Source: Escherichia coli
GTDB taxonomy: Bacteria > Pseudomonadota > Gammaproteobacteria > Enterobacterales > Enterobacteriaceae
Length of the DNA: 64,000 bases
NCBI RefSeq assembly: GCF_030013205.1
Contig: NZ_CP122648.1
Reading direction: 5' to 3' (one strand)
Shown here: in pieces, positions 9,001 through 12,000 of the stretch
Position numbering within the stretch: position 1 is the stretch's first letter
How the letters are laid out: every line of letters begins with the position of its first letter
Program-made: the position numbers

Positions 9001-12000
9001 GGCTTACGAGAATTGCCAGGATTGTGCCACTCTGGACAAACGCTTTCTAAATGCGTCATGTTTGCGAGATCAAATCGGTTCATATGCCCATACAGAGAAT
9101 AGATTTCATCTAAAATCCGGATATCTGCACGGCTCAACTCATCAAAGACCTCGTCTGCATCCATTTCCCTCGGATCTGAACGCAACAACACATCATGCCC
9201 GTTCGTCTCTATCAGGTTGTACCAGTAGTCACCAATACCTTCAGCCTTACCACGAATCAAGTTCAGCGTATTCGACATGACTGGACCAAATTTCATAGAG
9301 TAAAGGCTATCTTCGCCGATCATCCTGCCATGCTTCAAAATCGACTTGCGGTTAGACAGATAGAGCAGCTTCATCAATTTCAGATATGCCATGCGCCCAC
9401 CTCGCTTAAGAAGTAGGTATGCAGCCATTTGAGCTACTTTTTCTTCGCAAAACATATAAGAAACCTCAAAGATAGTGAACTTTGTAATTATTCTCGATAC
9501 TTCATGGGTTGCTTCATCACCAACATGAGCTTCTTATGGTGTGCCCACTTAGGCCTAAGCAACTAGTTACCTTGTTTGTCAAGTTTATAGCTGGCTTTAA
9601 TCATGGTCAATTGAAGTGATGAGCAAATGATGCTTTCTAAGAATAACAGGTTCCCAATAGGCTCCCACAAAGTGTATAACTAGTTGTTTTTCAAAAACGG
9701 TACATCCTATCGAGCATTGGTGCAACGCTAAACCGACCACTCCAGTGAACGTCAGTTTTTTCAGGCATTGCGCTGGTTTGGTTGATTTTTTGCATTTCAG
9801 AATTACCGTGCATTTTCAAATGTAGAGATTATTTTATCGATATATCATGGGGTTATGTTATTCAGCATCACTGTTCAGGAGGCTCAATAGCGGGGTACTA
9901 TACCATAACAACAGGAAGCGCCTGTCTCATTGCAAAAGAAAATTGAGATCCTCTCAAGGCATGAAGCTCTCACGAAGTGATGGAAATAATCTTATTAGCC
10001 GTTAGCTTTGTTAAGGCCAATGATAAACAATCCAGGTTCGACGATAAATAAAAATCACACATTAAACTCCGGTGATATCTCTCCCTGCTAATAGCACTGA
10101 TAGAGAAAAAAAGAACCCAATAAGCATTGGGTTCTTTTATGTAATACCTTCCATACCATCGAAGAACTTCACATATTATTTTTCTAGTTCAATACCAAAT
10201 AGATCATAAATTGAATTAGAGATATCGTTTGGAATTTGAATCAATTCCGTTGAATCTGGGTCACACGATTGTACGAAGTCATTTAATTTCTGCGCCGCAC
10301 CATGCATTTTTGTAACGTCTTTTAGGACTCGTTTTCCTTCGTCTTCCTGACGTTTCATATCAGTTACAATGTCATTGAAATCCAGTTTCCCTGCGACTGC
10401 CAGATTTTTCATCTCCTTCAGATTTTTTTTCATCTCTTGTTGAGATAACGTTTTCACCTGATCTGTTATGTATTTTTCGCAATACTCATCAATATCCACT
10501 GCAGCTACCAGATCTGCTAATGCACTACCATATGAACATGAAATTAAAAGGGAAGCCAAGGGTTTTAAGCGAATATCGTCATATTGATGATATGCATTTT
10601 CTAAATTTATAAAACCATCACCTAAAGTTTGTAGATGTAACGAAGCTATAGATTCATCATCAATAGATTTTTCATAAAATAGTTGAATAGTTGATGGGAG
10701 TCCATTCGGGCTTGCTACATCAAAAGTACATCTGTCTATGAGACTTACTGTCTGATGTTCTACTTTATTACAGACAAAACTAATCGCATAATGAAAAATC
10801 GCCCTGTCTACATATAAAGCGATATAATCACGATCGCCTAATTGCTCTTGAGAGCAGTCATCAATACACTTATCGACCCACAGTTTGAGTTCATTTATTC
10901 TGCTGATTAACGACACATTTTTGATACTTGCTGTCCATAAATTAAGGGTGATTTTTTGAATAAATAAATCTATTTTTGCAATAATCACATCGCGATTATT
11001 CGCAGTTGCATAATCAACCGATTTATTATATATATCCTTTATTTTTTCTTTGCTCGCATCTTTAATTTCGTATTGATTTGAATGGAGTGTATTATTGAAG
11101 AATTCTGTTGCACTTGAAATTATACCTGACATGATTCATCCACCTTTTTTGTCGTACCGTGTCCTCCTTATAATTCTTTTGCCATCTGCTCACTATCAAA
11201 AATCGCTCATAATCTCTGAAGTACAGGTATGCGATCAAACCCAGCTAAATAAATAGCGATTTAACTTGAAGCAATTTATTTAAAAATGAATTATTAATTA
11301 TTATCGTGTTGATAATGGTACTACCAGGCAAAACAACACATTACGTACAAAACAGAAAATCAACATTACGGCAACAATAAGGGTTCTCGGTGTTTTTCCT
11401 GGAACATGGTAAAGTAAGGACATTCTTAACCCCCACTTTGAGGTGCCCGATGGAAAAGACCACAACGCAGGAGTTATTAGCGCAGGCTGAAAAAATCTGT
11501 GCGCAGCGTAATGTGCGCCTGACTCCACAGCGCCTGGAAGTGTTGCGCCTGATGAGTCTGCAGGATGGCGCTATCAGCGCTTATGATCTGCTTGATTTGC
11601 TGCGCGAAGCTGAACCGCAAGCCAAGCCGCCAACGGTTTATCGCGCGCTGGATTTTCTGCTTGAGCAAGGTTTTGTGCATAAGGTGGAATCCACCAACAG
11701 TTATGTGCTCTGTCATCTGTTCGACCAGCCCACTCATACTTCAGCCATGTTTATTTGCGATCGCTGCGGCGCAGTGAAAGAAGAGTGTGCAGAAGGCGTG
11801 GAAGACATTATGCATACGCTGGCGGCAAAAATGGGGTTTGCCCTGCGGCATAATGTGATTGAAGCACATGGGCTCTGTGCGGCATGTGTGGAAGTGGAAG
11901 CGTGTCGTCATCCTGAACAGTGCCAGCATGATCACTCTGTGCAGGTGAAAAAGAAACCGCGTTAAGAGGGCGTACATCCTTGTACACGTCGGGCAGGAGG

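Follow-up and report, generated by a model that had tools for sequence, protein, structure and literature searches.

A lambdoid prophage inserted near the start of dusA in Escherichia coli: its integrase-distal junction with the chromosome

Prophage junction and crossover core

We examined the interval 9456-10175 of a 64,000-nucleotide stretch of an Escherichia coli chromosome (the window) and conclude, with a probability of about 0.95, that it marks the integrase-distal end of a lambdoid prophage, which entered the coding sequence of the tRNA-dihydrouridine synthase gene dusA by site-specific recombination about 100 nt from its start. The interval is a composite: it contains the prophage junction and an 8-bp core, then the native dusA start that was left orphaned and the DNA upstream of it, and finally a terminator that belongs to a neighbouring gene. 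DNA to the left of 9710 is phage, namely the leader of a Panacea toxin-antitoxin-type module followed by a 61-bp arm, and DNA from 9710 rightwards is unaltered chromosome. Specifically, the right-hand boundary of the prophage is fixed to the base, at 9709/9710.

BLAST comparison of window positions 9001-12000 with the K-12 locus gave one alignment, the first base of which is exactly 9710, and detected no K-12 similarity to the left of that position. On the minus strand, 9710-9813 is identical to the first 104 nt of K-12 dusA (104/104), and 9814-10175 matches the K-12 yjbM-dusA intergenic region at 349 of 362 positions. The initial annotation had named the interval as the likely place of the prophage/chromosome junction and the att core. 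Alignment to the prophage-free K-12 reference, a check it had proposed, agrees with this placement and puts the breakpoint at 9710, with the core at 9710-9717; K-12 aligns only from there rightwards, so the region is not core chromosome throughout with a junction elsewhere. No evidence against the junction assignment emerged in this analysis.

Since window positions 1-22175 are the chromosome of E. coli ETEC4079 at every base, with all 720 bp of the interval matching at 100%, the ETEC4079 record could be used for DNA beyond the window. The partner junction, the integrase and the replacement dusA start, which all lie beyond the window, were taken from this identical public genome. We extracted the junction strings and compared four sites: the window junction, the ETEC4079 partner junction, K-12 attB, and attP of the free phages SKA5 and mEp460 (three-way and five-way alignments were also made). 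The core TCGAGCAT at 9710-9717, which reads ATGCTCGA on the dusA strand and corresponds to nt 97-104 of dusA, is the same in attB, attP and both prophage junctions. In the window junction, the core is preceded by ACGGTACATCCTA, a left flank ending in CATCCTA, and followed by TGGTGCAACGC. The partner junction has GTCCGTCCAG, ending in CCGTCCAG, on the left and AGGAGCAATGC on the right. K-12 attB combines the left flank GTCCGTCCAG, again ending in CCGTCCAG, with TGGTGCAACGC, and attP of SKA5 and mEp460 combines ACGGTACATCCTA, ending in CATCCTA, with AGGAGCAATGC. This comparison locates the crossover inside TCGAGCAT, at 9710-9717 of the window, and shows both junctions to be the reciprocal products of attB x attP. 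The breakpoint in dusA falls after nt 104, in the 5' end of the gene. A direct repeat matching the one in the window, the other feature that had been suggested as a search target, is present at the far end of the prophage, beyond the window. The two repeats, TCCTATCGAGCATTGGTGC and TCCAGTCGAGCATAGGAGC, are identical at 15 of 19 positions, with the 8-bp core exact, and the two cores are 32,705 bp apart.

These data bear on two other explanations of the interval. One takes the whole 720 bp as a single phage-borne or chromosomal spacer holding a promoter and maybe a small RNA, with the prophage boundary somewhere else. Such a spacer would account for the AT-richness, the lack of a long ORF and a promoter-like site that precedes the Panacea gene on the correct strand, but not for a K-12 alignment that begins only at 9710 and whose first 104 nt are all dusA start, nor for a free-phage attP that matches only left of the core and then enters the phage's dusA copy. 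The searches described below also gave no Rfam match near the gathering score and no structural signal outside the terminator. The four-way att comparison refutes this explanation, and we hold it to be extremely improbable. The other explanation sees the dusA fragment as a relic of duplication, deletion or gene decay, with no site-specific integration, and agrees with a RefSeq label that merely names an incomplete pseudogene. We consider such a relic very unlikely because the fragment stops precisely at the core common to attP, a complementary hybrid lies beside the integrase at the other prophage end, the two junctions are reciprocal products of attB and attP, and the same junction is found in 363 genomes with differing cargo.

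Site-specific integration also agrees with the gene order on either side. In the ETEC4079 annotation, lambdoid early genes on the left are followed by a PrtN-family gene, then by three small genes on the minus strand, the last of which encodes the Panacea protein, and further to the right by a dusA pseudogene fragment, DUF2713, zur, yjbJ, dinF and lexA. The order in K-12 is zur, yjbL, yjbM, dusA, pspG, qorA and dnaB. In ETEC4079, dnaB, qorA, pspG and an intact 1038-bp dusA are located about 33 kb to the left; since this is the rest of the K-12 gene series, the prophage sits inside dusA. The 1038-bp dusA is adjoined by a tyrosine integrase and then by phage tail genes. The integrase has 365 aa (PF00589, E 1e-20), starts 88 bp from the dusA start, and is identical to the integrase of phage Lys8385Vzw at 100% and to that of phage 1720a-02 at 363 of 364 residues. 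In the partner-end dusA, the first 96 nt are a phage-derived copy with about 85% identity, a type of dusA start that is also present in free phage genomes, and the gene matches K-12 from the core onwards. The phage-borne start is fused in frame, with 9 of the first 35 residues differing from K-12, so that dusA stays intact. The prophage itself is a defective lambdoid element of 32.7 kb in which terminase, tape-measure and head-fibre genes are truncated. The Int gene, an excisionase-like gene and both cores are intact, and the element is otherwise degraded.

The phage carries its own copy of the dusA 5' end beside int and recombines at TCGAGCAT in dusA. Integration joins this copy to the remainder of dusA at the far prophage end and strands the native start with its upstream region at 9710-10108. 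The orphaned dusA 5' end in the interval identifies the integration target as a protein-coding gene. A tRNA-type attachment site was also considered and rejected: ARAGORN detects neither a tRNA nor a tmRNA in any part of the window, and the target is therefore not a tRNA gene.

Phage arm of the attachment site and related elements

The integrase-distal arm of the phage attachment site occupies 9649-9709 (61 bp). When six elements that differ in their neighbouring cargo are aligned, 58 of its 61 columns are invariant; conservation begins exactly at 9649, with the first copy of the motif GGYTCCC, and the sequence further left is unrelated. The motif forms two direct repeats in the arm, GGTTCCC at 9649-9655 and GGCTCCC at 9660-9666, spaced 11 bp apart. 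GGYTCCC occurs only six times on both strands of the 64-kb window, two of these in the arm, and three further copies cluster at the partner end, in the 88-bp gap from the replacement dusA start to int. From the position and repetition of the two copies in the arm, we infer that they may serve as arm-type integrase sites. An IHF-like site, AAACAACTAGTTA, with one mismatch to WATCAANNNNTTR, lies at 9677-9689 on the minus strand, in the stretch that separates these repeats from the core. It belongs to a 13-nt repeat pair (9557-9569 and 9677-9689) built on the palindrome AACTAGTT, both copies of which are one mismatch away from the IHF consensus. The copy at 9677 differs at one base among the elements compared, and may, as a weak candidate, be a bending site. 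We dropped the copy at 9557, which is outside the conserved arm, and dismissed the remaining short internal repeats of the interval as resembling chance.

The phage side of the interval (9456-9709, 254 bp) is shared, arm included, by 363 of 5426 complete E. coli genomes, which makes this type of junction common. Most of the 254 bp is present in only 207 genomes; in the remainder, sharing is limited to the 63 to 105 bp next to the core. The chromosomal part of the interval is found in 4378 of the 5426 genomes.

In phage lambda, attP and attR consist of a short crossover core flanked by arms with repeated arm-type integrase sites, an IHF-type bend site is located between the core and the arm sites, and a separate excisionase is used. 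The layout here is lambda-like, with a core, GGYTCCC arm repeats, an IHF-like site and an excisionase, these sites being predicted from sequence. As in lambda, the GGYTCCC pair of the arm, the IHF-like site and the three int-side GGYTCCC copies would assemble the recombination complex. Unlike that of lambda, the present target is within a protein-coding gene that is repaired by the phage's own copy, so that about 100 bp of coding sequence splits one of the arms. Excision would require Int together with a PrtN-like excisionase, acting on the window junction and its partner. The probable source of this directionality factor is the PrtN-family annotated gene at 7899-8207 on the plus strand (Pfam PF11112, E 4e-23), which matches PHROG 1300, 'excisionase', at E 8e-40, and whose product could serve to reverse the junction.

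Elements of this kind are well described. Integrative elements specific to dusA, present in more than 200 bacteria, integrate in the 5' end of dusA, supply a new 5' end and leave the original one as the outer element boundary; they have semiconserved direct repeats of about 21 bp at their ends and dusA-associated integrases (Farrugia et al. 2015, PMC4482086). The present prophage is likewise inserted in the dusA 5' end, with its breakpoint after nt 104, and leaves the native 5' end (104/104) and upstream region (349/362) as the outer boundary. It also shares with those elements an in-frame replacement 5' end that gives a full 1038-bp dusA in ETEC4079, a tyrosine integrase adjoining dusA at the partner end, highly mosaic cargo, and semiconserved end repeats, 15/19 here, with the 21-bp repeats of the published elements compared by description. 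Nothing essential differs; the prophage studied here is lambdoid and defective, and only its integrase-distal junction falls within the window.

A close counterpart is phage 1720a-02: experiments have demonstrated that its excision depends on Int and that it integrates 100 bp into dusA, where the 7-base core lies within TCCAGTCGAGCATGGGAGC (PMC6328086). This phage (Phi-stx2dact, with attR in Citrobacter rodentium and E. coli; PMC6328086) resembles the present prophage in its integrase (363/364 identical), in an insertion about 100 bp into dusA at the core TCGAGCA(T), and in having the same attP arm, which matches the arm in the window at 96% over 76 bp. Unlike the present prophage, 1720a-02 is inducible and carries stx2 and another att-adjacent gene, whereas the present prophage has the Panacea module and has lost structural genes. 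The dusA locus has also been reported as an insertion site of Stx phages under the names yjbM, zur and dusA (PMC8065619). As the arrangement, the integrase and the core have all been described previously, the finding is an ordinary one.

The stranded dusA start and the neighbouring terminator

The initial annotation presented the interval as an AT-rich, non-coding spacer bounded on the left by the start of a Panacea gene, and several parts of this description stand. The GC content of 9456-10175 is 38.6%, versus 49.8% for the 64-kb window as a whole; the interval is bordered on the left by the ATG at 9455 of a 190-aa ORF (8883-9455, minus strand), the Panacea gene; and the longest overlapping ORFs reach just 54 aa (9782-9946, plus strand, TTG start) and 52 aa (9847-10005, plus strand), in keeping with the claim that no long ORF is present. 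Two parts need revision. The interval does lack long ORFs, but the word non-coding passes over the native dusA 5' end, of which 35 codons remain; and what was taken as a single spacer has the extent described, but consists of two joined pieces, phage DNA at 9456-9709 and native chromosome at 9710-10175. The latter piece, 65% of the supposed spacer, is ordinary core chromosome. Its share, the orphaned dusA 5' end and the role of the gene as target had been overlooked in that earlier reading.

The orphaned dusA 5' end (9710-9813, minus strand) begins at an ATG at 9813 and runs through 34 complete codons into codon 35, of which 2 nt are left. RefSeq annotates 9709-9813 (minus strand) as a 105-bp tRNA-dihydrouridine synthase pseudogene without its C-terminus, and the junction accounts for this small pseudogene left by annotation pipelines. 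Fusion of the orphan start to phage DNA creates a 40-codon ORF at 9691-9813 on the minus strand, which ends at a stop at 9691 and translates as MHGNSEMQKINQTSAMPEKTDVHWSGRFSVAPMLDRMYRF. Upstream of it, 9814-10108 (minus strand, about 295 bp) is the native dusA upstream region, equivalent to the K-12 yjbM-dusA intergenic region, and presumably contains the native dusA promoter. Two minus-strand sites in this region are candidates: a possible extended -10 element, TGgTATAGT, at 9905-9897, suggested by reading the sequence, and a promoter-like site at 10014-9986 that scores 9/12 in the promoter scan.

The right end of the interval belongs to the neighbouring DUF2713 (yjbL-yjbM) gene at 10176-11132 on the minus strand. 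Just past its stop is its intrinsic terminator hairpin (10109-10138, minus strand), which is core chromosome and unrelated to the prophage. The hairpin is a perfect 13-bp inverted repeat (10109-10121/10126-10138) with a 4-nt loop. It had been described as a bidirectional terminator, and this holds for one direction: the minus-strand reading, with the T-run TTTTTTTCTC, alone passes the terminator scan, but the plus strand has just four T after the GC-rich stem. Because a proper T-run is found on the minus strand only, the hairpin should terminate DUF2713 transcripts well and act only weakly in the opposite direction.

A small RNA had also been suggested for the interval, and our searches gave it no support. 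Rfam 15 gave no match in the interval at gathering thresholds. A permissive Rfam scan of 9300-10300 returned six matches of 17-25 bits, all of them on the terminator hairpin; the best, at 25 bits, compares with a gathering score of 60, and none reaches half of its family's gathering score. In a sliding 120-nt MFE analysis of both strands, z values of -2.7 to -4.7 relative to shuffles were obtained only in windows containing the terminator hairpin, and folding elsewhere in the interval showed no excess (z -1.8 to +2.1). When we searched the literature for RNAs or other features described between yjbM and dusA, nothing relevant came up.

The cargo module and its possible promoters

Beside the attachment site, the prophage carries a three-gene cargo module on the minus strand (8254-9455). 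It consists of the Panacea-domain protein of 190 aa (8883-9455; Pfam SocA_Panacea, E 1.8e-18; RefSeq "Panacea domain-containing"), a 139-aa partner ORF (8467-8886) that overlaps the Panacea gene, and a 57-aa ORF (8254-8427); the module ends with a terminator at 8235-8211, and all these elements are on the minus strand. The prophage DNA at 9456-9648 (minus strand) is the leader of the Panacea module and its probable promoter region. This segment is absent from K-12. It accompanies the Panacea module in phages SKA5 and Lys8385Vzw as well as in 207 E. coli genomes, and unrelated sequence takes its place in mEp460, 1720a-02 and strain M8. By sequence reading, a Shine-Dalgarno GAGG precedes the Panacea gene at 9467-9464 on the minus strand.

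That the interval holds the promoter of the three-gene module, as initially proposed, is plausible. The promoter scan finds one sigma-70-like site upstream of the Panacea gene, with a score of 9/12 on the minus strand (-35 TTGACC at 9610-9605, -10 TAAACT at 9587-9582), but such sites are no more frequent than in shuffled sequence: 8200-10400 contains 4 promoter-like sites versus 5.3 expected from shuffles. With promoter-like sites at chance level, consensus scanning cannot assign the promoter. The same scan of the int-dusA' intergenic region at the partner end found no site.

The stranded host sequence offers another possible source of transcription. The cargo genes are co-directional with the orphan dusA fragment, and the terminator scan found no terminator-like site on the minus strand between 9813 and 9455. 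With neither a terminator-like site nor a stable structure between these positions, transcription from the dusA promoter could run into the Panacea module. The orphan 40-codon ORF would be transcribed from the stranded dusA promoter, from the weak sigma-70-like site at 9610-9582, or from both, and the same promoter or promoters may also transcribe the Panacea module downstream.

We therefore weighed, as an addition to the integration model, whether integration sets the native dusA promoter upstream of the toxin-antitoxin cargo, so that in the lysogen the cargo would be transcribed from the host promoter. The co-directionality and the open path from 9813 to 9455 are consistent with such promoter capture, as is the finding that, in all elements examined, the gene or module beside the att site reads in the same direction as dusA; these elements were this prophage, SKA5, mEp460, 1720a-02, M8 and AVS0196. 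This shared orientation may, however, be inherited from a common ancestor; the module also has the separate sigma-70-like site at 9610-9582, and Rho-dependent termination could occur in the 235 nt left untranslated beyond the orphan ORF. On balance, we regard promoter capture as a tentative and rather unlikely proposal. The full promoter swap, in which the phage dusA copy takes over the host gene and the stranded promoter reads through the 40-codon ORF into the cargo, is similarly doubtful. If the swap were true, cargo expression would depend on the integrated state, and the att-adjacent slot would be a hot spot for plugging defence or addiction modules into a host promoter. The analysis otherwise yields little beyond a correct annotation, and the point of some interest would be a stranded host promoter driving variable toxin-antitoxin cargo, if that is indeed the case.

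With regard to the free phage, the cargo genes would in the promoter-capture proposal lie downstream of the phage's own dusA copy. The content of the att-adjacent slot differs between elements: the module there is a YafO-family toxin pair in M8 and another Panacea pair in AVS0196.

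Decay and an excisionase-like gene

The lambdoid prophage inserted in dusA is degraded. The element measures only 32.7 kb. In ETEC4079, whose chromosome matches window 1-22175 at every base, the annotation lists the genes for capsid, head fibre, tape measure and large terminase as truncated pseudogenes (locus L003 18473-29952, left of the window). Within the window, the gene at 7899-8207 on the plus strand is annotated as belonging to the pyocin activator PrtN family. Because it matches a PHROG excisionase family (E 8e-40) and lies in the place expected for a lambdoid xis, this RefSeq name is probably misleading.

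Variable cargo beside the attachment site

Between the excisionase-like gene and the arm of the attachment site, prophages in dusA carry cargo of the toxin-antitoxin type that varies from one prophage to another. In the window's prophage this cargo comprises a Panacea protein with a 139-aa partner, and a 57-aa ORF (8254-9455, minus strand); the partner has no Pfam match and corresponds to phrog_19071, a family of unknown function. Strain M8 carries a YafO-family toxin pair (L006 1370-2360), and strain AVS0196 a Panacea pair that differs from the window's (L007 1416-2464). The cargo has the same orientation as dusA in all three prophages. At the AVS0196 junction (L007 2501-2830), the DNA next to the phage arm and core does not resemble E. 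coli dusA, and zur comes immediately after it. Both the DUF2713 gene and the orphan dusA start, the native 5' piece of dusA that is stranded beside the window's prophage, are absent. This arrangement could reflect a deletion or could have been inherited from another host.

The two dusA starts and their flanks

At the partner end of the prophage, outside the window, 88 bp separate the phage-supplied dusA start from the integrase start (L003 16981-17068). This gap contains three GGYTCCC repeats, candidate arm-type integrase sites, of which two are direct and one is inverted, and no consensus sigma-70 promoter was found in it. Integrase binding predicted there could regulate both divergent genes, dusA and int. 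On the chromosomal side, where K-12 has the separate genes yjbL (84 aa) and yjbM (235 aa), the window has one ORF of 318 aa, the very AT-rich DUF2713 gene (10176-11132, minus strand; 33.6% GC). Overall identity to K-12 is 84.8% across 9710-12000, which includes this gene, compared with 96% for the adjacent dusA upstream DNA. Among 5,426 complete E. coli genomes, about 1,046 lack the K-12-like first 88 nt of dusA and, counted separately, about 1,048 give no megablast match to 9456-10175, the region with the native dusA upstream DNA. These counts suggest that in many E. coli lineages the 5' end of dusA may have been replaced, or old insertions may have left remnants.

Other features of the window

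Elsewhere in the window, three Rfam matches score above the gathering threshold: a lysine riboswitch (37730-37926, plus strand; 99.5 bits), the enterobacterial sRNA STnc430 (35687-35835, plus strand; 88.3 bits) and the nucleoid-associated RNA naRNA4 (22057-22127, minus strand; 79.8 bits). Two more AT-rich islands of 34-40% GC lie at 19001-21000 and 55001-57000, within chromosome of about 52% GC, and the first overlaps an ETEC4079 gene annotated as a SopA family protein (about 19170-20750).
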